In this document: in pieces, positions 3,722-63,206 of the stretch
How the letters are laid out: each line of letters starts with the position of its first letter
Position numbering within the stretch: the stretch's first letter is position 1
NCBI GenBank assembly: GCA_018303445.1
Contig: JAGVYE010000003.1
Coordinates: 2,366-66,365 of the forward strand
Length of the DNA: 64,000 nt
Direction of reading: 5' to 3'
From: Candidatus Woesearchaeota archaeon
GTDB taxonomy: Archaea; Nanobdellota; Nanobdellia; Woesearchaeales; GW2011-AR9
Made by a program: the position numbers and the translations under genes
Notes under the pieces: model-generated
The model's input: only the letters and a program-made list of their open reading frames with translations
Told to the model about the DNA's origin: nothing
Database searches by the model: none

Positions 3722-3789
3722 CTTGTCAGCTTTATTTCATACTTCAAGTGGTCTCCGCAAGTGGTGCTCCAAACACTTTTCAATAACGC
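3722..3789 (+). repeat. 68-bp conserved intergenic element, copy A. 64/68 identical to copy B at 55765..55832. Ends 50 nt upstream of a + strand start codon
   Basis: cttgtcagctttatttcatacttcaagtggtctccgcaagtggtgctccaaacacttttcaataacgc. Contains a TTTATTT TATA-like box. A partial inverted partner lies at 3630-3667. Confidence 0.6.
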
Positions 3790-3838
3790 CCTAAATTTAG
3801 GAAAAATATATAAAGATTATTTTCTTGCTATCGTAGTG

Positions 3839-6724
3839 ATGTTTAAAAAAAGAGCGTGGATCATGGCGATTGTTTTAATTTTATTAAATTCAACTTTCTT
3901 GCTGGCTGATCATCAGTTAACAATTGGCTCTGTCGGCTGTCCAATTGGCGCTTCCAATCATTGCGTGGAAAATGCTTATTGTCCTTCTTCCGATTTTTAT
4001 GATGGCACAACTCGAATTGCCAGGCAAACGGTATGCACCGAAAAATTGATTAATTACCGACGTTGTAATGCAGATGAGCCTGCTGATCGGAGAGATCAAC
4101 AGTGCTTAGGAATTCTTAGAAATCCTAATCTTCCATTCTCAGCAACAACCAATCCTGTTGATCTGCAAAGCAGATGCCTGCCGGCGGAAACTGATCAGCG
4201 AGGAAATAACCCTCAATTAATTGCAGGACAATATTATTGCCTTCCTATCTATCGCGGACCTACACTTTTTCCTAGTTATGATGGCCAGCAGTGTTACAAC
4301 CAAGAACAATGTTCTAATGGCATTTGCGATCGCAAGGCTGATTTTGAAGATAAAAAAATTTGCCAGCGGGCCTTGATTTCGTCAGCCAACCATTTGGGAG
4401 GGGTCGCTCCTGACGTAACCATTCGCGGCGCCTGTTTTTTTGACCGCCAATGTTTTGGCTACGATCCTCAGAGTAATGCTGATGCCTGCGCTGGAGAAGA
4501 TCGCGCTGTCGTGCCTTACAGTCCGGGAGTTTGCCGTTTGCGGCAAGGACAACCCCAAATCGGGTTTACCATTCGTTCTGACCTTTGGGGAAATATTGAC
4601 GGGACGCCAGCAGCAGCTGATGCTACTAGAATTAGTGTTTATCGGGGAGAAACAATTGAATTAAACTGGAATGTTATGGCGGATACCGTCAACAGCGGTC
4701 CAGTTTCCTGCACGGGAATTAGCAATCCTCCAGGCCTCTGGACGTATTCTCTGCAAAACTGGGAGGACCGTTCCTTTGCGCCCTATCCTTTGCTATGGAG
4801 ACCAGAAACTCCTATTTCTCAGAGAATAGGGCCAATTACTCAGGATACGTCGTTTACCTTTTCTTGCACTAATAGGGAAAGTAGCACTCCCATTTCCAAG
4901 ACCGTACAGGTTACTTTGCGTCCAGTTTCTCCTCCCGCTTGCTCTGGGAATGAAAATAACTGTCTTTTAGCTCATTTGGATTTTGAACGGCCAGAAATAA
5001 ATGGTGAATCAGCTGGGAGACAAATATTTCCCGGCGGTCCTGAAAGCTCTTGCCGTTTTCCTCAAGTTTGCACGAGAAACAGGCTGGGAGAATATTTGCC
5101 CGGCAGATTGCAAGGAAATCCAACTCTAATACCTTCAATAGATTCAAACCAACCTGGACCTAGATTCTACCAATTGGATGGTGTTGATGATGTTGTTTCT
5201 CTTCCTTTAGATATCCGCGACCCGGTTTTTTCTAATGGAGTTACCGTTTCATTTTGGGTTAAGCCGGGAAGTAATAGAAATGAGGACTTATTGGTTTGGG
5301 CTGATTCTGTAGGCGGAAGAATTTTGAATATCCTTTTAAATCCTTCTTCAGGTGGCCAAATTATGACTGTGAGTGCAGGCGGTTTAGGCGGTATAATATT
5401 ATCCCCGTTTTATGGTTCACGATGGAATCAGGTTGTTTTCTCCATCCAGCCGCAGTCAAATCAGCAAACTCTAACTTATCGTGTTTATATCAATGGTCAT
5501 TTAAAGTTTGAAGGGACCCAATCAAATATTCTTTTTCAAACCGGAAAAATGCTTTTGTTTGGTGGGGTTCGTGATTTTTTAAATATCCCACCTTTCACTG
5601 GCAGCATAGATGAAATAAAAATATTTCGTGAAGCGCTGCCAATGAGGCAAATAGCTAATTTATATCGTACAGATGCACTTCAAAATCATAATTACTGGAG
5701 AGGATGTTTGGGAAAAGTGCCAAGTTCCCAGCTTTGTACTATCGAAGTTAATGGTGCAAACTTAGATGATCGTATTGTTACCAATTTGCTAGACAACCAA
5801 GGCCAGTGTCCAGCTACAGTTGGAAGTCGTAATCTTTGCCATGCTTACTGCCTGCCAGGTTATGTCGTCCAGCCAGGCAATAGTATCGGAGAATCCCGCT
5901 GTGTTCCGGAAGGGCAGCAGGATTTGGCTCCTCCAACAATTACCAGTCAACAAGCAACGGATATAACCTCTACTTCTGCTACCTTGCGAGTAATTACCAA
6001 TGAACCAGCAACTTGCAGATATGATCGTATTGATGGCGGTTCTTATAATTCGCTGATCAATCCATTTGCCACGACAGGAGGCACGAGCCATTCTTCTGTT
6101 ATTAACGGTTTAGAACCGCAGGGATACATTTATTTTTTTAATTGCCGGGATAATTTTGGCAATGTGCGCGCCCAAAATTATCAAATCTCATTTGTAATCC
6201 CAGTTGAAACCACTCCGATGCTCTATTATTGTTCCAGCGACCGTAATGAGCCTAATCAGGCCAACAATCCTCCTGCCGGAGGCGTAGGTTTGAGATATTC
6301 GGGATATAATACTCAAATTAGGGGCACTTCGAACATGGTTGATGGTATCTCCCAAACAGACGTTTGCGAATCAGCAACAGCCTTGCGTGAATTTTATTGC
6401 TGGTCAGCGAATGGACGATATATTAACCCAGATAGCGCCGCTGCTGGTTTATTACGATCGGAAGTAGTTAACTGCAATTGTCTTGAGGGCGCCTGCGTCA
6501 GCGCTCCGCCTCCAGCCGCGGCTTGCGGCGATATTGACGCCAATGGCATAATAAATATTGCTGATATTAACCGCCTGATTGCTCATGTAGTGAATCGACA
6601 ACCGCTTACTGCCGATGAACGGCTTAGGGCTAATGTTGACGGGGCTGGAGAGATTACTTTTGGAGATATTTTCCGGTTAATTGATAAGGTGATTAATCCA
6701 TTAACATCTTTGGTCTGCTCATAA
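3839..6724 (+). CDS. Large secreted protein: N-terminal signal/TM, Cys-rich region, LamG/ConA-like lectin domain, C-terminal dockerin (two Ca-binding repeats)
   Basis: Start set at MFKKRAWIMAIVLILL (the ORF-track start at 3761 lies inside the conserved 68-bp element). LamG-like stretch: VTVSFWVKPGS...WNQVVFS...YINGHL...GSIDEIKIF. Dockerin: GDIDANGIINIADINRLIAHV + ANVDGAGEITFGDIFRLIDKV. Confidence 0.75.
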   Translation: MFKKRAWIMAIVLILLNSTFLLADHQLTIGSVGCPIGASNHCVENAYCPSSDFYDGTTRIARQTVCTEKLINYRRCNADEPADRRDQQCLGILRNPNLPFSATTNPVDLQSRCLPAETDQRGNNPQLIAGQYYCLPIYRGPTLFPSYDGQQCYNQEQCSNGICDRKADFEDKKICQRALISSANHLGGVAPDVTIRGACFFDRQCFGYDPQSNADACAGEDRAVVPYSPGVCRLRQGQPQIGFTIRSDLWGNIDGTPAAADATRISVYRGETIELNWNVMADTVNSGPVSCTGISNPPGLWTYSLQNWEDRSFAPYPLLWRPETPISQRIGPITQDTSFTFSCTNRESSTPISKTVQVTLRPVSPPACSGNENNCLLAHLDFERPEINGESAGRQIFPGGPESSCRFPQVCTRNRLGEYLPGRLQGNPTLIPSIDSNQPGPRFYQLDGVDDVVSLPLDIRDPVFSNGVTVSFWVKPGSNRNEDLLVWADSVGGRILNILLNPSSGGQIMTVSAGGLGGIILSPFYGSRWNQVVFSIQPQSNQQTLTYRVYINGHLKFEGTQSNILFQTGKMLLFGGVRDFLNIPPFTGSIDEIKIFREALPMRQIANLYRTDALQNHNYWRGCLGKVPSSQLCTIEVNGANLDDRIVTNLLDNQGQCPATVGSRNLCHAYCLPGYVVQPGNSIGESRCVPEGQQDLAPPTITSQQATDITSTSATLRVITNEPATCRYDRIDGGSYNSLINPFATTGGTSHSSVINGLEPQGYIYFFNCRDNFGNVRAQNYQISFVIPVETTPMLYYCSSDRNEPNQANNPPAGGVGLRYSGYNTQIRGTSNMVDGISQTDVCESATALREFYCWSANGRYINPDSAAAGLLRSEVVNCNCLEGACVSAPPPAAACGDIDANGIINIADINRLIAHVVNRQPLTADERLRANVDGAGEITFGDIFRLIDKVINPLTSLVCS

Positions 6725-7132
6725 AAAGGTATGTATTAAGTCTGGGGCTTTAACATCAACCCGTGGGCCTTCTCGCCAATTAAGATCCAGCAAAAAGGGA
6801 ATTCATGAAATGTGAAAAATATCACATTTCAGTACTGAAAATAAATCTCTGTTTATTTTCATGTTCCAAAAGGAATTTTTGCCTTTGAGTTGCAACATCG
6901 CGTTCTCTAGGTTCGTGAAAATTGCTAAAATATCAAAAATCACTCAGAAAGTGAAATGTGCCCACATAGTTTACGACAAAAATAAATTATAAAGCAAGGT
7001 TATAAACTCTCGTTAAGGATTAATTCAGTTTCAACCAATAATCCATAGCTTATTTATGTCGCCAATTAACAAAAGAAAAAGTATATAAATGGCAAGATTT
7101 TCTCTTAAAGTTGAAAAAAAAGGATGAATTAG

Positions 7133-8572
7133 ATGAAGTTAAATGAGGTTAGTGCAAGTAAGAGTAAACTATCTCGCTCTGTTATTTCTGGCTCTCAGAT
7201 TTCTTCTTTCAAGAAAACAGGGCTGATAGTAATGATAGCAGTTGTGATTTTAGCCATAGGGTTCTCGTTTCTGTTTCCAGCTTCTAAGAAGGGACTGGCA
7301 GGGCGGGCATTCGGGGAAACTGTTGGTGGACCATCAATACCACTCACAAGTTGTGGTCTAATCACTGCGCCAGGAGTCTATACTCTTAACACTGTTCTTT
7401 CTGTCGCTGATTCCGCGTTATCAAATAATGCCTGCGTGACAATTACAGTTGATAACGTCGGCATTCGCTGCACTGCTGGAGGAGGATTTACGTTCACAGG
7501 AAGCAATCCGCTAGCAAAAGGAGTGCGTATCATGAATGTGAATGGTGTGGAAGGTGTTAAGGTGACAGGATGTCAGTTTCTTAGTTTTCCACAGCGCAGC
7601 ATAGAAGTTGAAGGCAGCAGCGGCATTGTTCTTAATGATAATGTCATTATACAATCGGGAAGTATGGGGCAGGGTATTTCTCTTTCAGCTTCACAACGTT
7701 TGTTAGTTGATAAAAATAAAATTTCTGCTCCTATAGGTCTGGCGATGGATAGTACCACGGAAAGTGTTGTCAGCAGGAACATTATTCGCGCGGCACAGAC
7801 AGGAATCTCCGTTGGGCAAGGAAGCAGCATGAATTCTTTTTTTGAGAACACTGTTTCTGGCAGGCAAGCAGGAATAACCGTTGCGGCAACGGATAAAAAT
7901 GATTTTTATCTTAATGTTATCTCCGGAAGCCCGGTAGGGATATCTTTTAGCGGCTCGACAAATACTGGTTTCGGCCAGAATACTTTATGCGGGAATTTTC
8001 AAAATGGGGTGGCCTGCACAAGTACTCCTCCAACTACCTTTAGCGGCGGCAGTGGTAATTTTCTGACGGGAAATAGTTGTTCTAGTTTAGTAGGGGCTTC
8101 TTTTAGTGATTGTCCCAATCCTGCGGTTACTCTTTGCGGCAATAGTTGGGTTGATAATGGCGAACAATGTGATGATGGAAATACTGTCGGAAATGACGGC
8201 TGTTCAAGCACGTGTCAGAATGAACAACCTTCCTTCTCTTGCGCCACTCCTGCCCCAAATAATTCTGATCCTTGCGCTAATCGCGCTAATCCAACTACTG
8301 CCAACACTCCCAATGTTCTGTTTGCTACTTGCCCAACAACTAATGTTCCTGCTTGCAGTTATAGTTGCCGAAGTAATTTTCGATTAAATGCAGGAGTGTG
8401 TGAAGCTGTTCCCGCAGGTTTACCGGCTTGCCATGTACTTAAACAGAGGTGTGATACAAATGAAAAAATTATTATTGATGTTGGCATTATTGCTCCTTCC
8501 TTTTGCTTTAGCAGATATTTCCATAACTTGTTCTCCATCCTCAGTTCAACCAGGCGAAGCTGTGAATTGTAA
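7133..8572 (+). CDS. Membrane-anchored surface protein with a right-handed parallel beta-helix (PbH1-type repeats) and one Myxococcus-type Cys-rich repeat
   Basis: N-terminal TM (LIVMIAVVILAIGFSFLF). Repeating G-x-x-V/I-x-x-N-x-I/V units (NVIIQSG.., NIIRAAQTGISV.., NVISGSPVGISF..). CDDGNTVGNDGCSSTCQ motif. The 3' end overlaps the next gene by ~110 nt in another frame. Confidence 0.65.
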   Translation: MKLNEVSASKSKLSRSVISGSQISSFKKTGLIVMIAVVILAIGFSFLFPASKKGLAGRAFGETVGGPSIPLTSCGLITAPGVYTLNTVLSVADSALSNNACVTITVDNVGIRCTAGGGFTFTGSNPLAKGVRIMNVNGVEGVKVTGCQFLSFPQRSIEVEGSSGIVLNDNVIIQSGSMGQGISLSASQRLLVDKNKISAPIGLAMDSTTESVVSRNIIRAAQTGISVGQGSSMNSFFENTVSGRQAGITVAATDKNDFYLNVISGSPVGISFSGSTNTGFGQNTLCGNFQNGVACTSTPPTTFSGGSGNFLTGNSCSSLVGASFSDCPNPAVTLCGNSWVDNGEQCDDGNTVGNDGCSSTCQNEQPSFSCATPAPNNSDPCANRANPTTANTPNVLFATCPTTNVPACSYSCRSNFRLNAGVCEAVPAGLPACHVLKQRCDTNEKIIIDVGIIAPSFCFSRYFHNLFSILSSTRRSCEL

Positions 8573-9947
8573 CGCAGCTACTACGACTACGTTAAATAAT
8601 GTTGGCAGGTTAAGCTTTACAGTTAATCCCGGAACCTTATTTGAGATTACTAGCACATCTGGCCTTGCAGGAGTGACTTTTAATCCCGCTAATGGCATTG
8701 GAACCTATACCAATGCTCAAGGCATTAATTTTAATGCTAATGCGGTATTATTTACAATTAATTTACGCGCTAAAACTGGAGTTCAAGGCAGCGAATCGAT
8801 TTCATTTAGCCGATTTATCGTAAGAGATCTTACTCCCGCAGATATTAACTTTGGCACTGTAAGAAATTCGAATATGATCACTGTTGGTTCTGCTGACCGT
8901 GCTTGTTCAGAAGCAGATTGGTGTGGTCCATGGGGCACTTGTCCTGCTGGAACTCAAACTAGAACTTGTAACACGCCTGCAGGTGCAGCTTGTACTAGCG
9001 GTGTGACTGCTGAACCAGCAGAAACGCAATCTTGCACTCCAAGTTGCGCTGGAGTTGCGGATGGCGCAGCTTGTACTTTAAGCGGCGCTGCCGGCACTTG
9101 TCAAAGTGGTGGTTGTCAGACAGTACCTGGAACTTGTACTGCTCGCGCCACAACTTGTAATGTAGCTGGTGTTGATTGTCCTAATGGTCCAACTGGAACT
9201 CCTGTTCGTGTTAACCGAATAATTTGCCCTAGCGAAACTCCTTGTAATCCGACAACTGGATTATGTCAAGCAGTTGCATGTACTGCTCGCGCCACAACTT
9301 GTATTCAGGCAGGTGTTAGTTGCCCCTCTGGTTCATCTGGTGCTGCTGTTACAGTAGCTCAAGTAGTTTGCAGTGATGCAACTCCTGTTTGTAATACTAT
9401 AACTGGTTTATGTGAAGCCGCTCCTGCCTGTATTGACGCAGATAATGATAGGTATTACCCTGGAGAGTTTAGTACTCAATGCTTTATAACTGGCCAACCT
9501 TTGGGTTTTGGAGATTGCAATGATAATAATCCTCTCATTCATCCTAGCGATAATGAATTGATTTGTAATGATGGATTAGATAATGATTGCAATGGTTTCA
9601 CTGATTGCGCAGATGTCTTGGCTTGCGTTCGTTTAGCTTGTGTAACCGGCGGAGTTGCCGGAACTTGCCAAAATAATGGTATTTGTCAACCGCCTGCTGG
9701 TCGTGGAGCAACAAGTTGCACTGAAGGTCAATCCATAACTGGAACACCGTCTTGTAATTGTGATGCAAAAGTTATTTCCGGAGCAACTTATCAGCGTCAT
9801 GAAATTGGCGGACAATGCACCCTTCTGCTGGGCAAAATTAAAGCCGAATTTGAATCATCGCGTAATGCTTTGCAAAAAATGGTGAATATGGCGCGGTTGC
9901 TGCGTTGTTACATTTCCAGTACCAGAGCAACTTGCATGGAACAATAA
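8460..9947 (+). CDS. Secreted Cys-rich protein: signal peptide, N-terminal Ig-like (possibly cohesin-like) domain, W-C-W module, 2x A-T-C-x-x-A-G-V-x-C-P...V-C-S..T-P-x-C-N-x-x-T-G-L-C-E repeats, conserved GQCTLLL..IK C-terminus
   Basis: Start moved to MKKLLLMLALLLLPFALA (signal peptide). Paralogous in its N- and C-terminal segments to 12269..13822. Confidence 0.65.
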   Translation: MKKLLLMLALLLLPFALADISITCSPSSVQPGEAVNCNAATTTTLNNVGRLSFTVNPGTLFEITSTSGLAGVTFNPANGIGTYTNAQGINFNANAVLFTINLRAKTGVQGSESISFSRFIVRDLTPADINFGTVRNSNMITVGSADRACSEADWCGPWGTCPAGTQTRTCNTPAGAACTSGVTAEPAETQSCTPSCAGVADGAACTLSGAAGTCQSGGCQTVPGTCTARATTCNVAGVDCPNGPTGTPVRVNRIICPSETPCNPTTGLCQAVACTARATTCIQAGVSCPSGSSGAAVTVAQVVCSDATPVCNTITGLCEAAPACIDADNDRYYPGEFSTQCFITGQPLGFGDCNDNNPLIHPSDNELICNDGLDNDCNGFTDCADVLACVRLACVTGGVAGTCQNNGICQPPAGRGATSCTEGQSITGTPSCNCDAKVISGATYQRHEIGGQCTLLLGKIKAEFESSRNALQKMVNMARLLRCYISSTRATCMEQ

Positions 9948-9951
9948 GATC

Positions 9952-12240
9952 ATGAAAACTACTGCTGAAGATAATCTGGACCATTCTAAAATAAAGAATG
10001 AAAAGAAAGGGCAGGCAAATCAGAAATTAGTAGTAATCAGTATCTTTGCAGTAGTATTATTAGGAGCGCTGATAGTGTTATATTTCTTTACGGACACTTT
10101 TGTGGGAAGAGCGTTTCAAACTGGAATTAGGAATTCTGCCGGATTGGATTTCAGCGGCGGAATAGAAAATCTGCCTTTAAATGACGAGGGAACTTATCCT
10201 CTTAAAGCTAATGTTGATCAAGCCGTGAGAATCAATGCGATTAATTTTGTGATGAAGTATGATTCTGCCAAGTTATCAGTTAATAATTGCCAGCAGCGAG
10301 TTCAGCAAACTTTAGATAGTTATTTTAATTATAATCTCATTAATGATTTATCCTTAATACGAGAAGTTTCCTGTGATCCAGCAGGAAAAATAACGGTTAA
10401 TTATGTTTTTGCCTGTGATCCAACCAACAATTGCAATAATTTACCGGCTCCTGCTGCCTCCGGAGATATTTTCTTGGCAATATTTCTTTTTACTGGCATT
10501 GCGGCAGGAACTGCGGACGTTTATTTTGAATCATTAGACATTTATGATGTTAATTCACTGCCTGGAACTACGGCAGTTTCATTAAATTCTCCGACGAGAA
10601 CTAGCCCGGATAGAATTACTGTACGTCAGACTACGGAAACTGTTGATCAATCACTAGCTTGCACTAGTTCTAATGACTGTTCGACAGGACAAACATGCAG
10701 CGGCGGTATTTGTATTTCACCCCGTTGCGGCAATGGCGTACTTGAAGTAATAGAACAGTGCGATGATGGAAATACTGCTGGAGATGACGGCTGTTCTTCA
10801 ACCTGTCAAATTTATGAAGCAGGATGGCTATGTAATACACCCGGTCAGCTCTGCCAAAAATTATGCGGCAATGGGGTTGTTGAAGTTGCAGCTAGTGAAT
10901 GGTGTGATGATGGAAATAATGCCAATGGCGATGGCTGCACTCGTACTTGTCAAATGGAGAACGGATATGTTTGTCCAAGAAGAGGCGGAGTATGTATTTT
11001 AAGTACACAGGCTTGCGGCGACGGAGTAGTGCAAGTTGGTGAATATTGCGATGATGGAAATGCCGCTTCAAGTGATGGCTGCGCAGCTTGTCAAATTGAA
11101 AATGGATATACTTGCAGTGGCAGCCCTTCTGCTTGTGTTCGTATGGGGGAGACCACTTATATAAATTTTTGTGGCGATGGAATAATCCAAGACAATGGCG
11201 GGAATGGAATTGCCGGAGATATCGATGATGAACAATGTGATGACGGCAATCGAAATGATAATGATGCTTGCACTAATATTTGCCGCACTGCCTTTTGCGG
11301 TGATGGAGTTGTCAGAGCTGGAACAGAACAATGCGATGACGGCAATCGAAATGATAATGACGCTTGCACTAATATTTGCCGCACTGCCTTTTGCGGCGAT
11401 GGAGTTGTCAGAGCTGGAACAGAACAATGTGATGACGGCAATATGGTAAATACTGATGGCTGCACCACTCAATGTCGTACAAATGTTTGCGGTGATGGAA
11501 TTGTTTGGATAAGAACAGAATATTGCGATGATGGCAATCTAGTGAATGACGATGGTTGTTCAAGTACCTGTCAAATTGAGTTAATAGGCCGCTGCGGTGA
11601 TGGAACAGTTAACCCTAATGAACAATGTGACGATGGGAATCAAAATGATAATGACGCTTGCACTAATATTTGTCGCACTGCCTTTTGCGGCGATGGAGTT
11701 GTCAGAGCTGGAACAGAACAATGTGATGACAGCAATCCTGCAAATTATGATGATTGTACCAATGAATGTCGTATTGCCGTTTGCGGTGATGGAATTACCA
11801 GAGCTGGAACAGAACAATGTGATGATAGGAATACTATTACTGAAATATGTGCTTATGGTCAACGATCGTGTACTGTCTGTAATAATCAATGTCAATCTGT
11901 TGCTGGCGCAGCGACGTATTGTGGTGACGGAATTATACAAACGGGTGAACAGTGCGATGATGGAAATGCAGTTCTTGGTGATGGATGTTCAGCAACGTGC
12001 AGCGTAGAATCTAGTGGTGCTGGGTTATTGGGCGATGTAAATGGCGATGAGGTTGTAGATTTAGCTGATGCTATTGATGTTGCCAGATTTGATTTAGGTA
12101 TTTCGACTAGTCTAACATTCAATGCAGCGCGGGGAGATGTGACCTGTAATAATGGAGCAGTAGACATTGCTGATGCTATACTTATTGCCAGGGTTGATTT
12201 AGGAATTCCTGGATTTAATATCCCTAATTCCTGTTCATGA
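9952..12240 (+). CDS. Scaffoldin-like surface protein: N-terminal TM anchor, Ig/cohesin-like domain, ~14 Myxococcus-type Cys-rich repeats (C-x-DGN-x6-C-x3-C), C-terminal dockerin
   Basis: TM: VVISIFAVVLLGALIVLYFF. Repeats: CDDGNxxxxDxC(T/S)xxC..CGDG. C-terminal dockerin: GDVNGDEVVDLADAIDVARFDLG + GDVTCNNGAVDIADAILIARVDLG. Confidence 0.75.
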   Translation: MKTTAEDNLDHSKIKNEKKGQANQKLVVISIFAVVLLGALIVLYFFTDTFVGRAFQTGIRNSAGLDFSGGIENLPLNDEGTYPLKANVDQAVRINAINFVMKYDSAKLSVNNCQQRVQQTLDSYFNYNLINDLSLIREVSCDPAGKITVNYVFACDPTNNCNNLPAPAASGDIFLAIFLFTGIAAGTADVYFESLDIYDVNSLPGTTAVSLNSPTRTSPDRITVRQTTETVDQSLACTSSNDCSTGQTCSGGICISPRCGNGVLEVIEQCDDGNTAGDDGCSSTCQIYEAGWLCNTPGQLCQKLCGNGVVEVAASEWCDDGNNANGDGCTRTCQMENGYVCPRRGGVCILSTQACGDGVVQVGEYCDDGNAASSDGCAACQIENGYTCSGSPSACVRMGETTYINFCGDGIIQDNGGNGIAGDIDDEQCDDGNRNDNDACTNICRTAFCGDGVVRAGTEQCDDGNRNDNDACTNICRTAFCGDGVVRAGTEQCDDGNMVNTDGCTTQCRTNVCGDGIVWIRTEYCDDGNLVNDDGCSSTCQIELIGRCGDGTVNPNEQCDDGNQNDNDACTNICRTAFCGDGVVRAGTEQCDDSNPANYDDCTNECRIAVCGDGITRAGTEQCDDRNTITEICAYGQRSCTVCNNQCQSVAGAATYCGDGIIQTGEQCDDGNAVLGDGCSATCSVESSGAGLLGDVNGDEVVDLADAIDVARFDLGISTSLTFNAARGDVTCNNGAVDIADAILIARVDLGIPGFNIPNSCS
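11233..11814 (+). repeat. Tandem 96-bp (32-codon) repeats inside 9952..12240. Three copies are almost identical at DNA level (11233-11328, 11329-11424, 11623-11718) and others are diverged
   Basis: Repeat unit caatgtgatgacggcaatcgaaatgataatga(t/c)gcttgcactaatatttgccgcactgccttttgcgg(t/c)gatggagttgtcagagctggaacagaa. Confidence 0.85.
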
Positions 12241-12268
12241 AAAGGTGTTCATGAAAAGGTGAAATAAA

Positions 12269-13822
12269 ATGGTGCAAAGAAAATTTAAATCTTGGATGAT
12301 CATTGGTTTATTCATTTTAATGCTTCCCATAGCGGCCGCGGTTAATTTTAATGTAAATTGTCCTGCTTCATCTCTTTCTGGTCAAAGTTTTACCTGTCAA
12401 GTAAATATGCCGACGCCTCTGGCATCAGGTCTTTCATCATTGAGTTTTACTGCTAATGCTGGCGGAGCAACTATTGCCGTAACTTTTCCCCAAGGCACCA
12501 CGGTCAGCAGTGGCGGCACGTATGGTTTTTTTACTCCTACGCCAGTAACTAATTCTAATCCTTTAGCCTCCGTGCAAATAACTCCTATTACTGGCCAAAC
12601 CTCTGTAACATTACAATTGACTGGTGTGCGAGGACGATTGGGAGATAATACTTTACTTCTTCCTGCAAATCCAGCGCCAAATAATATTGCATTTAATAGT
12701 CCAACAGTAACTATTGGCTCTACTTGTACGTCAACAGGAAATGCAGAAACTAGTTGTAATGGAATAGATGATGATTGTGATGGCAGTGTTGATGAAAATT
12801 TCGTTGGAACGTCTACCACTTGCGGAGTAGGAGTCTGCGTTGCAACTGGATTGACAACCTGTCCGAGAGCTTCAGGTCAAACAACTGTAGGCAATAGCTG
12901 TACTCCTAGAACTCCAATAGCTGAAGTTTGCACTGACAGTTTAGATAATGATTGCGATGGAACGGTTAATGAGGGTTGTACTGTTTGTGTTCCTCGTGAT
13001 CCCACTGCCTGCACAACTGGTGTTGAATGTCCAAGCGGGAATAGTCTTCCAGCTTTAGGCTGTTCTAATGGTCAAAGTTGTCAGGGAAGTCCGGCTAGTT
13101 GTCAACCAACAGCAGCAGGAAATAATCTGCCGGTAGCAGAAGATGATACTTTTACCGTTGTTTTAGGAGCTGGTGCTGGCAGTCTAGAAACTACTTTTAA
13201 TGTTTTAACTAATGATCGAGATCCAGATAATGATGCTTTACGTATTACCAGCACCACTCAACCGGCTAATGGTTTAGTTTCTTTGCCATCAAACCGAAGA
13301 ATTTCTTATCGCAGCAACGCTGGATTTACAGGGACAGATTCATTTACTTACACTATCAGCGATGGCCGCGGCGGAACAGCTACGGCTACGGTAACGGTGA
13401 CAGTGAGTTCTTCTTTAACTTGCACTTTTCGCGCCGCAACTTGCAGTCAAGCAGGTGTTAATTGTCCTGATGGCTCTGGCGGCGAACCTGTTAGTATTGA
13501 CCGGGTAGTTTGCAGCGGTGTAACTCCTTTTTGTAATACTAAAACTGGCTTATGTGAAACTGGCTGTGCGGAAGGAACCTTGTTAGCAGATCCACCTGTG
13601 TGTACTTGTGTTGCTCCTTTGCAGAATGTTGATGGTGTTTGTAAATGTCCTCCTTCAGCAGGAAGGGCTCAGCATCTGGTGAGAGGGCAATGCACACTTT
13701 TACTTACAGAAATTAAAGATTCTTTAGAAAACGATCAGCAATATAGCGGAATAATGCAGAAAGTTTCCCGTATCGCTGAAGCGTTGAAGAATTTCCTGAG
13801 GGCAGTTCATTTAATTAATTAA
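12269..13822 (+). CDS. Secreted Cys-rich protein, paralog of 8460..9947: signal peptide, Ig/cohesin-like N-domain, Cys-rich region, C-terminal conserved GQCTLLLTEIK helix
   Basis: Signal: WMIIGLFILMLPIAAA. N-terminus NVNCPASSLSGQSFTCQVN parallels SITCSPSSVQPGEAVNC in the paralog. Shares the CTFRAATCSQAGVNCPDG...VVCSGVTPFCNTKTGLCE module. Confidence 0.65.
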   Translation: MVQRKFKSWMIIGLFILMLPIAAAVNFNVNCPASSLSGQSFTCQVNMPTPLASGLSSLSFTANAGGATIAVTFPQGTTVSSGGTYGFFTPTPVTNSNPLASVQITPITGQTSVTLQLTGVRGRLGDNTLLLPANPAPNNIAFNSPTVTIGSTCTSTGNAETSCNGIDDDCDGSVDENFVGTSTTCGVGVCVATGLTTCPRASGQTTVGNSCTPRTPIAEVCTDSLDNDCDGTVNEGCTVCVPRDPTACTTGVECPSGNSLPALGCSNGQSCQGSPASCQPTAAGNNLPVAEDDTFTVVLGAGAGSLETTFNVLTNDRDPDNDALRITSTTQPANGLVSLPSNRRISYRSNAGFTGTDSFTYTISDGRGGTATATVTVTVSSSLTCTFRAATCSQAGVNCPDGSGGEPVSIDRVVCSGVTPFCNTKTGLCETGCAEGTLLADPPVCTCVAPLQNVDGVCKCPPSAGRAQHLVRGQCTLLLTEIKDSLENDQQYSGIMQKVSRIAEALKNFLRAVHLIN

Positions 13823-13859
13823 TGGGGTTAGTTTATGAGGGTGAAGATGAGGTTAGTTT

Positions 13860-16331
13860 ATGAAAGTGAAGAGAATAAAAAAAGGCAAGCATAGTGTTTT
13901 ACGGTACAAGTCATTGCCTCCTCACACCAATGAAGCAGTTCCTGTTACACATCTGGGAGAAGTAAGCAAACCTTTTATTATTGTTGCCATTACTATTGCT
14001 GCTATTGTTTTGTTAGCGGTATTCTTAATGTTTAAAGATCAGATTGTTGGAAAAGCGTTTTTTGTGGCTGGTGTAGTAGATACAGCAGGCATCGCAAATC
14101 CTGGTTCAGTTTTGGAGAATACGCCTTTTTCTTTGCTGGTTAGAGCTAACATTGGAACGAAAGAAACAACAGGCATAGAATTTGAATTTCCTTTGCCTAC
14201 AGGATTACGTTGCCGAGTGGCAAATCCAATTGAGAATTTGTTGGGATGGAATGCCCAAAATGGGGCGCTGCTAGAGGAAGCAACGTGCGTGAATAACGTG
14301 GTGCATTTCCGTTATCTTACCGTGAATGGGCAAGAAGCGAAGAGAGGAGAGTTTGATATTGCACGAATTCATGTTGAAGGCGCAGCGGCAGGAACATACA
14401 CTTCAACTTTCCGTCTTTTTAATATTATTAATCTTGCTACTCCTCAAGGCGATATCATTAGCAATGGGTTGGTTGATCCTCTCGTTGTACGACAAGTGGG
14501 ATTCTGTCAGGATAATAGCCAATGCCAGCAAGGAGTATGTAATACGCAAACGAATCGATGTGCGCAATGTGTTGCTGATGCGCAATGCAGTGGAACTACG
14601 CCGATTTGTAATACCCAAACTAACCTGTGTGAAGCTCGTGCGCCTGCCTGTGGCAATCAGCAAATTGATGTAACAGAACAATGCGATGATGGTAATACTG
14701 CAAATGGAGATGGTTGTTCAAGCACTTGTCAAAGAGAAGCACCTCCAGAAATAACTTATCGCGTCAATTGTCCTCAAGATAATATTTCTATAGGTCAAAC
14801 AACAACGTGTGAAATTATTTTAAATCAGGCCGTAACGGAAACATACGGAGAACAATTTACGATTTCCGCTCCTGGATTTACGGCAGCAACTCCATTTATT
14901 GAAGGTGTTACAGGTATTACTGCATCTTCGGCAGGAATTGGAGGAACAACCCTTCTCGTTGAAAGTGATCACTTAACGAGCCGAGGTCAAGCGGCAGGTG
15001 TCGTGGCTCGGTTTACACTTCGCGCGGGAAATGCGGGAGGAATATACACAGTCTCTTTGAGCAACTTAGTCTTGGGAAGTTCTGCTACTTCTGATATGAT
15101 AACAATTTTAGCAGCGGAAAGAGAATGCAGCGCAACTAATAAAGCAGCATGCCAAGATCGAACATCATGCGAAGCTACACTTGTCGGCGGATATTGGTAT
15201 AATAATCAATGCAATACCCAACCGGAATGCCGCGTCAATAATTTAGCTGGCTGTCGAACACAAGCACAGTGTGAAGCGACAGCTATTGGCGGCCGATGGA
15301 ATGCGGCAACAAGCACCTGCAGTGCAGCGCCAACATGCAGCCCAACTAATCTGGCTGTGTGCACACAAACAAACTGTGTTACTGTTGGTCAAGGAGTTTG
15401 GAATACAACGGCAAGCAGCTGTGATACAGCAGTTGAAATTTGTAATGATGGACAAGATAATGATCAAGATACTCAAGTAGATTGCGTCGATACGGAATGC
15501 AGAGGAAGAGCCGGTGCCAATGGCGCTCTCTGTTGCCAAGCAGTAGCTGATTGTCGAGAAGGACAAGAGTGTCAAGCAAATCAGTGTAGAACGGTAACAA
15601 TCCAAACAACAACAACTTCTTCGTCTGGCGGAGGCGGTGGCGGAGGAGGCGGAGGCGGTGGTTGCGTTTCCAATTGGCAATGTGATCTTTGGAGTTACTG
15701 TAACTCTACTTTGCAGAAATCGCGAACTTGCATAGATTTGCGAAAATGTATCCAAAAGCCAAAATTAGAAGTTCAATCCTGTCCTGCTTGTGAAGAATCA
15801 TGGTTGTGTACGTCGTGGAGTCAATGTTTTGGCAGTACAAAAACGAGAACGTGTACTGATGAGCATAAATGTGGAACGTTGCGGCTAAAACCATCAGAGC
15901 AGCAGCAATGCACACTTCCAAGTTCGCAATTGCCTGTGCAACAGGTACAGCAGCCTCAACAGTTTTATGTGCCTCCCCCTTCAGTTCCATATCAAGCTCC
16001 ACAAGTACAAAAGCCAAGCGTCTTTAGGCAATATCAAACGTGGTTTATCAGTGGGGCTTCTCTCTTACTTTTAGTTATAATCTTAGGCCTGGTCTGGCGT
16101 TTAACTCATCGTCCTCAGCAACTGGGTTATAATATCGGTGAATTGAAAGAATGGATTAAACAAGAACAAGCAATGGGAACTTCAAACGAAGACATTAAAG
16201 AAATCCTCTCTGATAAAACGGGATGGACAAAAGAAGAAATTGAAAAGGCCTTTGAAAGTTTAGGAAGCGCGCTCACAGAAGAACAACTTCAATCTTCAGA
16301 AGAACAAATCATGGAAATAGGGGGGAAATAA
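13860..16331 (+). CDS. Giant membrane-anchored surface protein: N-terminal signal anchor, Ig-like domain, Myxococcus-type Cys-rich repeats, poly-Gly linker, 2x W-C-W 6-Cys module, Gln/Pro-rich stalk, C-terminal TM and conserved cytoplasmic tail
   Basis: TM1: FIIVAITIAAIVLLAVFLMF. Motif CDDGNTANGDGCSSTCQ. Linker SSSGGGGGGGGGGGG. Modules CVSNWQCDLWSYC.. and CEESWLCTSWSQC... TM2: ISGASLLLLVIILGLVW. Tail: NEDIKEILSDKTGWTKEEIEKAFESLG. Confidence 0.75.
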   Translation: MKVKRIKKGKHSVLRYKSLPPHTNEAVPVTHLGEVSKPFIIVAITIAAIVLLAVFLMFKDQIVGKAFFVAGVVDTAGIANPGSVLENTPFSLLVRANIGTKETTGIEFEFPLPTGLRCRVANPIENLLGWNAQNGALLEEATCVNNVVHFRYLTVNGQEAKRGEFDIARIHVEGAAAGTYTSTFRLFNIINLATPQGDIISNGLVDPLVVRQVGFCQDNSQCQQGVCNTQTNRCAQCVADAQCSGTTPICNTQTNLCEARAPACGNQQIDVTEQCDDGNTANGDGCSSTCQREAPPEITYRVNCPQDNISIGQTTTCEIILNQAVTETYGEQFTISAPGFTAATPFIEGVTGITASSAGIGGTTLLVESDHLTSRGQAAGVVARFTLRAGNAGGIYTVSLSNLVLGSSATSDMITILAAERECSATNKAACQDRTSCEATLVGGYWYNNQCNTQPECRVNNLAGCRTQAQCEATAIGGRWNAATSTCSAAPTCSPTNLAVCTQTNCVTVGQGVWNTTASSCDTAVEICNDGQDNDQDTQVDCVDTECRGRAGANGALCCQAVADCREGQECQANQCRTVTIQTTTTSSSGGGGGGGGGGGGCVSNWQCDLWSYCNSTLQKSRTCIDLRKCIQKPKLEVQSCPACEESWLCTSWSQCFGSTKTRTCTDEHKCGTLRLKPSEQQQCTLPSSQLPVQQVQQPQQFYVPPPSVPYQAPQVQKPSVFRQYQTWFISGASLLLLVIILGLVWRLTHRPQQLGYNIGELKEWIKQEQAMGTSNEDIKEILSDKTGWTKEEIEKAFESLGSALTEEQLQSSEEQIMEIGGK

Positions 16332-18431: not shown

Positions 18432-20009
18432 ATGAGAAATGTCAATAAAGAAAAAGTATTGGTAGCTCTAGCTATTATTATTCTTATCGCAGCTTTTCTA
18501 CTAACTTACATCCCTAAAGGGCCGTTGTTTGGCAAGGCCGTAAGTACAGGAATGACGCATGCCATCTCCATCCAAAATTTTGCTTTCTCACAACTGGAAG
18601 TTACTATTAATGTTGGGGACACAGTCACGTGGACAAATAATGACCAAGCTACACATATGGTAGTTTCGAGAGGAAGCGGACCTTTAGATTCTGGTACGAT
18701 GGTAAACGGGCAAAGTTATAGTTATACTTTTGTTGCTTCTGGCACCTATGAATTCTTTTGTTCCCTTCATCCATTTATTATGATCCCTGGAAGGGTTATA
18801 GTTATTAATGCCACCCCTGCCATTCCGCCGACTCCGCCTTCGCCTCCGCTAGACTCGCTGCCTCCCCAACCTTCGCCACCCCCTCCTCCGCCAGCGGCAA
18901 CGCCGCCTGTGATAGAGATGCCTTCATTAAACATAACTCTTGTCACTCCTTCTCACTCAGGTGCAGTTCAGAATGGAACAGTGAATTTCACGTACCTTTT
19001 TCAGGGAATAACTCCCAGCCAATGTATGTTATATGGAAATTTTAGCGGCACGTGGCAGCCAGGTCTTGCTCAAACAGTAGCTGTTAATGGGAGTTATACA
19101 TTTACTTCTAATCTTTTGAATGGAAGTTACCTTTGGAATGTTCTCTGCAGCAGCAGTTCAACGCAAGGGCTGGTAAGTAAATGGGGAAGCAGGAATTACA
19201 CTTTAACTGTGGCTGTACCAGCAAGTTCTCTTTCCGTCCCTAATATTTCTCAACAAAATCAAATCATGGTTGCTCTTCTTACTCCTGCTGATCGTGCCGC
19301 GTTGCAAAATGAAAGCGTTTCTTTCTCTTTTTCTTTTACAGGACCAACTCAAGGAAGTTGTCAGCTTTATGGCGATTTTAATGGCAGTTGGAGTATGAAT
19401 ACCAGCCTGGCTTCTCTTAATAATGGAACCTCTCGTCTCACTTTTAATGTTGGTAATGGACGTTATCTCTGGAACGTACATTGTGTTGATAGTGCTAATC
19501 TTTCTAATGAAGATTGGAGTGATTATAACTGGAGTGTTAGTGTTTCCCAATTGTCTGTGAATGTCTCGAGTCAAACAAATGCCACAAATATAACTTCTTG
19601 TTTAGAAGCCTGGAGTTGTACAGGGTGGTCTTTATGTGAATTTGGCAGGCAAACACGAATATGCACTGACCAAAATAATTGTGGAACCTTTTTACAAAGA
19701 CCGCCTCAGACCCAAGTTTGTGTTCAGCAGCAGGCAGCAGCAACAACAACTTCTCCAGCAAGTGGAAGTAATTTTCCTTCTACGAACACTGCAGCACAAC
19801 CAACACGGGCTCCTCCTTCCTTTCCTGCTCCTTCTCTTTCAGATACTGAAAAGAAACCTTTGGTGCAGCAGCCAAAAGAAACAACACAGAAAAAAAGTAC
19901 TCTTCTCTTCCTTATCCTTGGCACAACTGTTGCTTTGGTGGGTTTCATCCTCTACCGTAGGCACGTTGAAGTCATATGTGGCAAAAGACAGGATGAGAGG
20001 AGTCAATGA
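18432..20009 (+). CDS. Membrane-anchored surface protein with N-terminal type-1 copper cupredoxin domain, Pro-rich linker, 2x Ig-like N-glycosylated repeats, W-C-W module, C-terminal TM. Apparent +1 frameshift before the conserved cytoplasmic tail, which continues in frame +1 to 20082
   Basis: Cupredoxin ligands: H in ATHMVV, then C..H..M in FFCSLHPFIM. PPTPPSPPLDSLPPQPSPPPPPP linker. Repeated NGSYLWNVLC / NGRYLWNVHC. CLEAWSCTGWSLC module. TM LLFLILGTTVALVGFILY. Tail homolog (VNDTAIRQNLAQAGWNKNDIDEAMKK) is encoded in the other frame (ORF 19636..20082). Confidence 0.7.
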   Translation: MRNVNKEKVLVALAIIILIAAFLLTYIPKGPLFGKAVSTGMTHAISIQNFAFSQLEVTINVGDTVTWTNNDQATHMVVSRGSGPLDSGTMVNGQSYSYTFVASGTYEFFCSLHPFIMIPGRVIVINATPAIPPTPPSPPLDSLPPQPSPPPPPPAATPPVIEMPSLNITLVTPSHSGAVQNGTVNFTYLFQGITPSQCMLYGNFSGTWQPGLAQTVAVNGSYTFTSNLLNGSYLWNVLCSSSSTQGLVSKWGSRNYTLTVAVPASSLSVPNISQQNQIMVALLTPADRAALQNESVSFSFSFTGPTQGSCQLYGDFNGSWSMNTSLASLNNGTSRLTFNVGNGRYLWNVHCVDSANLSNEDWSDYNWSVSVSQLSVNVSSQTNATNITSCLEAWSCTGWSLCEFGRQTRICTDQNNCGTFLQRPPQTQVCVQQQAAATTTSPASGSNFPSTNTAAQPTRAPPSFPAPSLSDTEKKPLVQQPKETTQKKSTLLFLILGTTVALVGFILYRRHVEVICGKRQDERSQ

Positions 20010-61334: not shown

Positions 61335-62902
61335 ACTCCCGTTGATCCTGCGGGAGATTGCTGCTATGGGAGTTCGATTAAGCCATGCAAGTCAGAGGGC
61401 TGTCGCAAGACAGCACAGGCTGAATGCTCAGTAACACGTCAATAATCTGCCCTAAGGCTCAGGATAACCATGGGAAACTGTGGATAAAACTGGATAAGGG
61501 ATTGGTACTGGAATGTCCTTTCCTCTAAAGGTAACACCTTAGGATGAGTTGGCGGCCGATTAGCTTGTTGGTAGGGTAACGGCCTACCAAGGCAACGATC
61601 GGTACGGGCCGTGAGAGCGGTAGCCCGGAGAGGGGTACTGAGACACTGACCCCAGCCCTACGGGGTGCAGCAGGCGCGAAAACTTTACAATGTACGTAAG
61701 TGCGATAAGGGAACTCCCAGTGCTCATGCATAAGCATGGGCTTTTGCCAAGCGCAAATAACTTGGAGAATAAGTGGTGGGTAAGACGGGTGCCAGCCGCC
61801 GCGGTAACACCTGCGCCACGAGTGGCAATCGCTTTTATTGGGCCTAAAGCGTTCGTAGCCGGATGAGAAAGTCTTGAGTGAAATCGTTGCGCTTAACAAA
61901 ACGGCGCGCTTGAGATACTACTTATCTTGGGACCGGGAAGCGTTAGGGGTATTCCTGAGGGAGCGGTAAAATGCAATAATCTCAGAAGGACCACCTGTGG
62001 CGAAGGCGCCTAACGAGAACGGGTTCGACGGTGAGGAACGAAAGCTAGGGGAGCAAACCGGATTAGATTCTGGGTCTTTTTGTTGTTGTATAGGTTATTA
62101 TTTTGTCTGTTTGCGAAATTTACGATGATAAAATAAACTGATCAAAGGGCACCAGCTAATTACCCGAGTAGTCCTAGCTGTAAACGCTGTGTACTAGATG
62201 TTGCATATTCTTCGTGAATGTGCAGTGTCGGAGTGAAGACATTAAGTACACCGCCTGGGAAGTACGGTCGCAAGGCTGAAACTTAAAGGAATTGGCGGGA
62301 GAGCACCACAAGGGGTGCGGCGTGCGGTTTAATTTAACTCAACGCAGTGCATCTCACCAGTAGCGACGGCAGAATGATGGTCAGTCTGAAGGGCTTACCA
62401 AACGAGCCGAGAGGTAGTGCATGGCCGTCGTCAGCTCGTGCCGTGAGGTGTCCTCTTAAGTGAGGTAACGAGCGAGACCCATACCTATAATTGCCAGCGG
62501 GTGCTACGGCATGACCGGGCACATTATAGGGACTGCCTGGGAAACCAGGAGGAAGGTGTGGGCAACGGTAGGTCTGTACGCTCCGAATCTACTGGGCTAC
62601 ACGCGCGCAACAATGGCGAGAACAATGGGATGCAACACCGAAAGGTGAAGCTAAACCTCCAAATCTCGTCTTAGTCTAGATTGAGGGTTGTAACTCACCC
62701 TCATGACACCGGAATCCCTAGTAATCGGGCTTCAACATGGCCCGGTGAATATGTCCCTGCTCTTTGCACACACCGCCCGTCAAACCAACCGAGTTGGGTC
62801 TAGGTGAGATGTATCTTTGAGGTATATCGAATCTAGATTCGGTGAGGTGGGTTAAGTCGTCACAAGGTAGCCGTAGGGGAACCTACGGCTGGATCACCTC
62901 CT
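61335..62902 (+). rRNA. 16S rRNA (archaeal) with a ~93-nt insertion at 62069..62161
   Basis: 5' end TCCCGTTGATCCTGCGGGAG. Archaeal 515-region CAGCCGCCGCGGTAACACC. 3' end GGATCACCTCCT. GGATTAGAT|...|ACCCGAGTAGTCC is interrupted by an AT-rich insert. Confidence 0.9.
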
Positions 62903-62960
62903 TTTTTTATTTACTCTCAGAGTAAGTAAAAGTACTCAGTTAGAGTACATATATGTACCT

Positions 62961-63046
62961 GGGCCCGTAGCTCAGGGGTAGAGCGCCTGCCTTGCAGGTC
63001 AGTCCTAGAACGCAGGAGGCCTCGGGTTCAAATCCCGACGGGTCCA
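62961..63046 (+). tRNA. tRNA-Ala (TGC) in the 16S-23S spacer, with a 14-nt intron (62997..63010) at the canonical 37/38 position
   Basis: GGGCCCGTAGCTCAGGGGTAGAGCGCCTGC-CTTGCA[ggtcagtcctagaa]C-GCAGGAGGCCTCGGGTTCAAATCCCGACGGGTCCA. Cloverleaf intact once the intron is removed. No encoded CCA. Confidence 0.85.
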
Positions 63047-63206
63047 TTCCCTATGGGGAAAGAACGTTCCTGAAAATCCTTCTGGATTTCTGGGACACGA
63101 CGTTATCGACAACAACGTTGTTGGTAGCGATTGGTTGAGTTTGATGGAGCATGTATTCAACATGCGAGATAACATCATAATAATGAGCCATATGTAGATC
63201 AAAGTA

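Follow-up and report, generated by a model that had tools for sequence, protein, structure and literature searches.

Cohesin and dockerin modules form tight Ca2+-dependent pairs, and both are also known from non-cellulosomal proteins across the three domains of life. ScaC of Ruminococcus flavefaciens is an example of an adaptor that carries a single cohesin. DPANN archaea presumably live in attachment to other cells, and their attachment machinery is mostly annotated as “hypothetical protein.” Non-cellulosomal cohesins and dockerins occur in archaea, and “scaffoldin-like” proteins with both a dockerin and a cohesin are found in anaerobic methanotrophic (ANME) archaea (PMC9012536). Binding has been shown for archaeal cohesin–dockerin pairs, as summarized in the same article (PMC9012536, citing Peer 2009, Bayer 1999 and Haimovitz 2008 as refs 166-168), and an adhesin role has been proposed for non-cellulosomal dockerins of ultra-small Omnitrophota (PMC10066038). 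We found no description of cohesin–dockerin systems in Woesearchaeota in the literature searched. Here, we analyzed a 64,000-nt stretch of a Candidatus Woesearchaeota archaeon (contig JAGVYE010000003.1; hereafter the window), and focused on a gene at 9952..12240 encoding a 762-aa protein. The results show that this product is an extracellular, Cys-rich modular protein, consisting of a hydrophobic N terminus, a divergent cohesin fold, eleven DUF4215/TIGR02232 repeats and a C-terminal dockerin.

A Cys-rich modular protein with a cohesin fold and a dockerin

The predicted open reading frame (ORF) is present on the + strand and corresponds to NCBI product MBS3116085.1, for which DUF4215 is the sole annotated feature and both end modules were missed. 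The public label, “DUF4215 domain-containing protein,” mentions nothing else because the cohesin and the dockerin both score below the Pfam gathering thresholds. An identical product is encoded on 7 metagenome contigs, and exact-sequence look-ups of the FtsZ and ProRS of the window, as well as of the 762-aa protein, led to Candidatus Woesearchaeota archaeon products. The protein contains 62 Cys (8.1% of residues) which, together with the Lys-rich N-region and the 21-residue hydrophobic stretch that follows it, indicates a surface location. Its features are the following:

9952..12240, + strand: gene of the 762-aa protein (ORF list; NCBI MBS3116085.1)
residues 1-25: Lys-rich N-region
10027..10089, + strand: hydrophobic stretch, residues 26-46, signal-anchor or signal-peptide h-region (Kyte-Doolittle 19-residue windows up to 3.0)
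10099..10116, + strand: juxtamembrane motif FVGRAF, residues 50-55 (family consensus roughly [FL][VA]G[KR]A[FYI])
10135..10626, + strand: cohesin-fold domain, residues ~62-225, with an inserted helix at residues ~113-124 and four conserved Cys (C113, C141, C155, C161)
residues 236-258: short Cys-rich linker
10726..12009, + strand: eleven Cys-rich acidic repeats (CGDG..E.CDDGN...DGC...C), DUF4215/TIGR02232, residues 259-686 (Pfam, NCBIfam)
12025..12207, + strand: dockerin module, residues 692-752 (phmmer against the PDB, independent profile, structure prediction, Foldseek)
12034-12069, + strand: dockerin Ca loop 1 (D695, N697, D699, D703, D706)
12136-12174, + strand: dockerin Ca loop 2, D729-D741, with a one-residue insertion, C732 (alignment A3)
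12208..12237, + strand: C-terminal tail PGFNIPNSCS with Cys761, residues 753-762 (predicted local distance difference test, pLDDT, about 88)
12145-12147 and 12232-12234: C732 and C761, the sites of a putative Cys clasp; the counterparts in the first dockerin of the window lie at 6524-6526 and 6716-6718, and such sites are likewise found in L002, L008, P0002 and P0005

The dockerin had been predicted at 12025-12225, corresponding to residues 692-758, on the basis of two strings that are indeed present, GDVNGDEVVDLADAIDVARFDLG (residues 694-716) and GDVTCNNGAVDIADAILIARVDLG (residues 728-751). When the full-length protein was searched against Pfam and NCBIfam, neither Cohesin nor Dockerin_1 was reported at E<=0.1, and the repeats were the only matches. 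On the isolated C terminus, Dockerin_1 (PF00404) is the best Pfam match (16.7 bits, E=0.0083), below the gathering score of 22.9, such that the profile match expected in the original prediction was obtained narrowly. With phmmer against PDB sequences, the top ten matches are all dockerins and the best one, Clostridium thermocellum Xyn10B (2ccl_B, E=2.4e-4), aligns over both segments. Moreover, a profile of Woesearchaeal dockerin-like C termini retrieved 4 matches among 5.8 billion proteins, 4/4 with a precomputed PF00404 hit. We then scored all 421 six-frame ORFs of the window with an independent profile built from these four unrelated PF00404-bearing proteins (P0012-P0015) and no window sequence. 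It recovered the C terminus of the 762-aa protein with E=1.4e-10, the sole other match being the C terminus of ORF 3761..6724 (E=2.4e-5). AlphaFold2 (AF2) modeling of residues 684-762 from an 8-sequence alignment gave a three-helix fold (pLDDT 87.9; helices at 21-31, 42-45 and 56-66 of the 79-residue construct). In a Foldseek search of the PDB with this model, matches 1-32 were all dockerins, with probabilities up to 1.00 and a target-normalised template modeling (TM) score up to 0.82, and generic EF-hand proteins appeared at E>2 only. The initial dockerin call is thus supported, albeit with a sub-threshold Pfam match.

The module is made of two tandem loop-helix segments of ~22 residues. Loop 1 (D695-D706) displays D/N/D/D/D at EF-hand ligand positions 1, 3, 5, 9 and 12, and loop 2, in which Thr occupies position 3 and a residue is inserted relative to bacterial dockerins, is partly canonical (D/T/N/D/D). 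A regular expression for canonical dockerin loops missed the protein, since position 6 of loop 1 is Glu and not Gly. The two segments (residues 695-717 and 729-752) are identical at 14/23 positions, with nearly identical helices (VDLADAIDVARFDLGI versus VDIADAILIARVDLGI). Type I dockerins have an internal symmetry that makes two binding orientations possible and, by analogy, the near-symmetric segments may permit a dual binding mode. In addition, every Woesearchaeal dockerin-like module that we saw has a Cys 1-2 residues from the C terminus (NSCS, LVCS, SSCS, LPCT, NSCP, ALIC) and a second Cys, located either within or beside Ca loop 2 or immediately ahead of loop 1; both extra Cys are absent from the four bacterial PF00404 dockerins. 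The residue pattern suggests a C732-C761 disulfide clasp.

The N-terminal domain had been described as cohesin-like from two strings, LKANVDQAVRINAINFVMKYDSAKLSV and GTADVYFESLDIYDVN, which are both present. On the isolated domain, Pfam Cohesin (PF00963) is the top match (14.2 bits, E=0.05), below the gathering score of 24.1. A word-indexed search retrieved nothing for the N-terminal 256 aa, and homologues, 10 in all, came only from an exhaustive HMMER search of 1.84 billion representatives. Nine of these display a hydrophobic stretch, then a [FL][VA]GKA motif, then a beta domain; the tenth, P0009, looks spurious. Cohesin is matched by 3/10 aligned family members, and homologue P0006 (E=3.4e-6 to the 762-aa protein in the exhaustive search) clears the Pfam cut-off (26.1 bits, profile positions 11-125 of 139). 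Searched against the PDB with phmmer, the domain alone yielded only noise (CusC, mastigoneme; E>2), and cohesins surfaced with the family profile, whose three matches are all cohesins (E 0.066-0.96) aligned on the same “..F.l.YD...L..” strands. The AF2 model (10-sequence alignment; pLDDT 85.1, predicted TM-score 0.82) is a beta-sandwich with one helix, and its best 40 Foldseek matches are all cohesins (top E=5.4e-8), with an identity of only 6-19%. The domain therefore has the nine-stranded beta-sandwich (jelly-roll) fold of cohesins, in agreement with the initial description, with a sub-threshold Pfam match. The conserved C113, C141, C155 and C161 probably form two disulfides, putatively C113-C141 and C155-C161. 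A cohesin would bind its dockerin through the 8-3-6-5 sheet face. The gene of another homologue, P0008 (Woesearchaeota), lies at a contig end.

The central repeats were detected with both DUF4215 (PF13948; E=6.4e-66, 10 stretches, 218.9 bits versus a cut-off of 27) and TIGR02232 (E=3.4e-95, 11 stretches, 311.6 bits versus 20.8), and the array would form a disulfide-bonded stalk. The protein had been called repeat-rich and scaffoldin-like: it is repeat-rich, but the repeats are DUF4215 and not cohesins, and therefore the 762-aa protein is at most a monovalent connector. The repeats are encoded by a 96-nt tandem array at 11230-11825, with identical peptides from three copies (CRTAFCGDGVVRAGTEQCDDGN). 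Variant P0001 (SRR3989338) lacks exactly one 32-aa repeat, indicating that stalk length is polymorphic in the population.

At the N terminus, residues 26-46 may be either a retained anchor or a cleaved signal peptide. In the juxtamembrane motif, G3 and A5 are nearly invariant (alignment A1), and FVGRAF may be a signal-peptidase site, with small residues at -3 and -1 and cleavage at VGRA/F. A “KKG-Q” before the hydrophobic stretch raised the possibility of a class III (pilin-type) signal peptide, which was ruled out, given that this Gly is not conserved in homologues. A common N terminus is shared by three proteins of the cluster described below (7133-7330, 9952-10116 and 13860-14060), with a charged N-region of 25-38 aa, 20-23 hydrophobic residues and [FLI][VA]G[KR]AF. 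The motif tracks the membrane segment and not the cohesin, since it is followed by a beta-helix in ORF 7133 and by a Cys-rich acidic region in P0007. Together, the N-region, membrane segment and motif may constitute a lineage-specific processing or sorting signal. The neighbouring proteins 8460 and 12269 have short classical signal peptides, unlike the three G[KR]AF proteins.

Gene cluster and relatives

The gene belongs to a same-strand cluster that spans about 3839-16331, with intergenic gaps of 4-37 nt from 8460 to 16331. Exactly two cohesin-like and two dockerin-like modules were found among the 421 ORFs of the window, all of them inside this cluster, which contains, besides the gene under study:

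3839..6724, + strand: secreted Cys-rich protein with a LamG domain (Laminin_G_3, E=5.2e-15) and a C-terminal dockerin at 6524-6721; candidate cargo
7133..8572, + strand: transmembrane segment and AGRAF motif, beta-helix (NosD-like), one DUF4215 repeat (Pfam)
8460..9947, + strand: secreted Cys-rich protein with a classical signal peptide, beta domain and MopE motif; ends 4 nt before the 9952 gene
12269..13822, + strand: secreted Big_9/cadherin-like protein with MopE motifs (Big_9, E=1.9e-24); begins 28 nt past the 9952 gene
13860..16331, + strand: 823-aa protein with a cohesin-like domain at 14043-14441 after a transmembrane segment and IVGKAF, and a C-terminal transmembrane segment at 16044-16097; candidate anchor

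The real start of ORF 3761..6724 is M27 (3839), matching a 961-aa NCBI product, and its isolated dockerin scores 20.2 bits with Dockerin_1. The second cohesin was recognized with a cohesin-family profile lacking window sequences, which matched ORF 13860..16331 (E=6.8e-8) as its sole other domain in the window. The N-terminal domains encoded by ORFs 9952 and 13860 do not match each other in BLASTP, and their kinship is visible by profile only. The 823-aa protein also has a DUF4215/TIGR02232 repeat and a cytoplasmic tail after its C-terminal transmembrane segment, and the same architecture is found in P0010. Its gene carries 12 consecutive Gly codons at 15627-15662, followed by two Trp/Cys-rich repeats (C..W.C..W..C) that are found in P0010 too. 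The beta domains at the N terminus of 8388/8460, at the N terminus of 12269 and in the middle of 13860 were considered as additional cohesins and rejected by sequence-based comparison (hhalign probability 0.3%; PDB profile matches at noise level only). No glycoside hydrolase, carbohydrate esterase, polysaccharide lyase or carbohydrate-binding module family was detected in the cluster genes and five other large window ORFs (Pfam for all, NCBIfam for five cluster ORFs only).

The products of 8460..9947, the start of which is fixed by a 495-aa product called in L002, and of 12269..13822 end alike, with “GQCTLLL..IK…” and then an amphipathic helix (window 9800-9947 and 13680-13822). Comparable helical tails replace the dockerin in homologues P0004, P0006 and P0007, and this ending may provide a different way of interacting or anchoring at the C terminus.

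Comparison with relatives shows which parts of the protein are kept. The cohesin of the orthologue is 60% identical in L005-L007 and 41% identical in L008. P0002/L007 has a cohesin 61% and a dockerin 85% identical to those of the window protein, yet its middle differs, consisting of a beta-helix and 2 DUF4215 repeats only; the end modules are thus the conserved parts. P0005, with an identity of 31% in alignment A1 and of 35% across the stretch that was matched, also has a dockerin-like C terminus. The distant L008 carries most gene types of the cluster in a partly kept order (LamG-MopE-dockerin, beta-helix, Big_9/cadherin, cohesin-TSP3-DUF4215 protein). This co-localisation of cohesins and dockerins, recurring in the window cluster and in L008, is the main, albeit indirect, evidence that they work together.

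Several rearrangements affect the modules. In L005 (5300-5815) and L006, two close relatives with the same cohesin, a tandem pair of 76-aa units stands in place of the dockerin at the C terminus of the orthologue. Each unit, with “GD[YF]NNDGKTTPADAVRFNFHSLFGQLLG…” and then a six-Cys segment, contains one EF-hand-like half-dockerin and a Cys-rich part, whereas the sister locus L007 has a normal dockerin. Compared with L002 (blastn), the window lacks 188 nt at breakpoint 8422/8423 (window 8405-8572, L002 8283-8470). The lost sequence encodes a C-terminal dockerin, from a junction between …AVPAGL and LGDVNRDTFVD… down to LPCT and the stop codon, as well as the intergenic spacer. The L002 C terminus continues ...AVPAGLLGDVNRD... 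into this dockerin, which ORF 7133..8572 has lost, and because of the deletion that ORF runs out of frame for ~112 nt into the next gene (start 8460). Upstream of 8225 the genes are unrelated, encoding a beta-helix protein in the window and a BNR/DUF4215 protein in L002. L001 and L004, otherwise 99.97% identical, have a 654-nt tandem duplication in gene 12269 (window 12332-12985; L001 3473-4780) that doubles the N-terminal beta domain of its product (735 aa versus 517 aa), as well as another indel around window 15297-15349.

Just downstream of the cluster, a 525-aa protein (18432-20009) with a plastocyanin/azurin-type cupredoxin N terminus and a weak LPXTG-anchor-like C terminus is probably another surface protein. 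Near the other end of the window lies a full-length archaeal 16S rRNA gene (61335-62902), followed by a spacer tRNA and the beginning of the 23S gene. The tRNA (62960-63047; 86-88 nt; Rfam 62.9 bits) was called “tRNA-???” (gc) by ARAGORN, with no anticodon assigned, and may contain an intron; tRNA-Ala is expected at such a position.

Proposed function and alternatives

Based on this architecture and on the encoded neighbours, we consider it reasonably probable that the 762-aa protein is a non-cellulosomal cohesin–dockerin connector, building a multi-protein surface structure from the products of its own cluster. In the simplest scheme, which would follow the anchor-adaptor-cargo logic of cellulosomes, its dockerin would plug in a Ca2+-dependent manner into the cohesin of the membrane-anchored 823-aa protein, and its cohesin would take up the dockerin of the LamG lectin-like protein, with the repeat array serving as a rigid spacer. 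Such a structure would serve adhesion, through LamG, cadherin-like and beta-helix partners, plausibly of an ultra-small archaeon to a host or substrate, and not polysaccharide degradation. The reverse wiring, as well as head-to-tail self-association, is equally compatible with the data.

Several observations weigh against this proposal. Neither module reaches its Pfam gathering score on the 762-aa protein itself, and Ca2+ binding by loop 2 is uncertain owing to the Thr at position 3 and the one-residue insertion. If the N-terminal stretch is kept as an anchor, the protein is no free adaptor. The assignment of partners between the cohesins and dockerins of the cluster is guesswork, and the net charge and isoelectric point of the two cohesins and two dockerins favour no pairing. 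The dockerin seems dispensable in some strains, since L005 and L006 swap it for another module. Finally, the family is small (10 matches in 1.84 billion representatives) and a profile scan of GTDB representative genomes found no relatives, which limits generality.

The original prediction saw in the combination of both modules the hallmark of an adaptor scaffoldin. One cohesin and one dockerin do reside on a single secreted polypeptide, and both a cohesin-bearing anchor candidate (ORF 13860, with its C-terminal transmembrane segment) and a dockerin-bearing cargo candidate (the LamG protein, 3839..6724) are encoded. On the other hand, no dockerin-bearing carbohydrate-active enzyme was found among the scanned ORFs. 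The architectural part of the prediction is thus supported and the cellulosomal sense is not, given the missing glycoside-hydrolase families in the scanned ORFs and the Woesearchaeota origin; “adaptor scaffoldin” holds as an architectural analogy only.

That the protein is nevertheless a true cellulosome-type adaptor, organising polysaccharide-degrading enzymes, appears very improbable. A single cohesin with a C-terminal dockerin is the layout of single-cohesin adaptors, dockerins of the adaptor scaffoldins ScaB and ScaH rank among the closest structural matches of the dockerin module, and the beta-helix of a cluster protein is a fold common to pectate lyases. Against these likenesses stand the lack of any glycoside hydrolase, carbohydrate esterase or carbohydrate-binding module family in the ORFs scanned, the LamG domain on the sole dockerin-bearing partner, the presence of only one cohesin in the 762-aa protein, and the DPANN origin, archaeal cohesin–dockerin systems being regarded as non-cellulosomal (PMC9012536). 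The protein might instead be a stand-alone adhesin or stalk in which the pairing has been lost, the dockerin being a Ca2+-stabilised, disulfide-stapled end cap or ligand-binding tip and the cohesin fold a membrane-proximal Ig-like spacer or a binder of another ligand, e.g. on a host cell. The strong divergence of both modules, below the Pfam thresholds, would fit this, as would the non-canonical loop 2, the other Cys-rich module found in place of the dockerin in L005/L006, the adhesin-like neighbours (LamG, cadherin-like Big_9, beta-helix) and the roles other than dockerin binding reported for cohesin folds, such as TMEM132 (PMC6030884). We nonetheless consider it unlikely, as equal numbers of cohesin-like and dockerin-like modules lie in one cluster and co-occur again in the distant L008, which is what a matched pair predicts, and the helix residues of both dockerin segments are strongly conserved among orthologues.

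Head-to-tail self-assembly, whereby the dockerin binds the cohesin of another copy to form filaments, a surface mesh or bridges between sister cells without joining different products of the cluster, would exploit the presence of both modules on one polypeptide with a long repeat spacer between them, their joint retention in P0002/L007 and P0005, and the near symmetry of the dockerin segments (14/23 identical). It would leave the second cohesin and the second dockerin of the cluster partnerless, and in cellulosomal adaptors the cohesin and the dockerin of one protein are not matched to each other. Moreover, the unequal identity to P0002 (dockerin 85%, cohesin 61%) points, weakly, to a partner other than its own cohesin, and we regard this possibility as quite unlikely.

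Extending the proposed connector role, we tentatively put forward, as a possibility that goes well beyond the present data, a compact, cellulosome-like Woesearchaeota “adhesosome” operon that varies between strains. Its products, namely a cohesin protein anchored in the membrane, an adaptor of the cohesin-stalk-dockerin type and a tip protein combining LamG with a dockerin, would be assembled in tiers via a lineage-specific cohesin subfamily and disulfide-clasped dockerins, and strains would re-tool the structure by deleting, swapping or duplicating modules. The idea of re-tooling comes from the 188-nt dockerin deletion, the alternative module of L005/L006 and the changes in repeat and domain copy number. 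If true, the operon would be a candidate for what determines the host range of these ultra-small archaea and their attachment to hosts.

Comparison with known systems

Behind the “DUF4215” label are a cohesin and a dockerin, on a protein encoded in a recurring cluster together with surface proteins of the LamG, cadherin-like and beta-helix kinds. The identification of the two modules raises a concrete question that can be tested in vitro, namely which dockerin fits which cohesin and in what way the surface complex is put together. It also indicates that annotation by Pfam thresholds undercounts archaeal cohesin–dockerin systems, which structure prediction recovers.

With other DUF4215/TIGR02232 “Myxococcus cysteine-rich repeat” proteins, the 762-aa protein shares its eleven repeats (E=3.4e-95); unlike them, it has two terminal interaction modules, which are its most function-informative parts. 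Compared with bacterial single-cohesin adaptors, it likewise has one cohesin, a C-terminal dockerin and other cohesin or dockerin proteins encoded nearby, and the closest Foldseek match of its dockerin is that of the ScaB adaptor of Acetivibrio cellulolyticus (4uyq_B, E=4.5e-4, TM-scores 0.71/0.76). Sequence identity is low, with only 6-19% on the cohesin side and, among the dockerin matches, 18-37% on the dockerin side. It differs from these adaptors in having no carbohydrate-active enzyme cargo in the scanned ORFs, an organism that is no cellulolytic Firmicute, an N-terminal stretch that may be a membrane anchor, and a Cys-rich spacer where they have Pro/Thr linkers or an X module.

Like the type I dockerin of Xyn10B (2ccl_B / 1ohz_B), the dockerin has two loop-helix segments, internal symmetry and no preceding X module. 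It departs from it by the Glu at position 6 of loop 1, where Xyn10B has Gly, by the DVTCNNG of loop 2 and by the extra C732 and C761. Positions 10/11 of C. thermocellum dockerins are Ser-Thr, unlike the hydrophobic pairs L-A and I-A found here.

Archaeal non-cellulosomal proteins have been described from Archaeoglobus fulgidus (cohesin 2xdh) and from ANME archaea. In contrast to these, the present system belongs to a DPANN lineage, with a single cohesin placed right after an N-terminal membrane segment. An inserted helix and four conserved Cys set the Woesearchaeal cohesin apart, 11 DUF4215 repeats form the spacer, the second loop of the dockerin is 13 residues long and a Cys lies at its C terminus, and both modules are sub-threshold in Pfam. 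What is gained is thus a known principle extended to a new lineage and not a new principle. Taken together, the kind of system is well known, including in archaea, and its variant features here appear to be a divergent subfamily of cohesins, a dockerin that bears Cys residues and a stalk of DUF4215 repeats.

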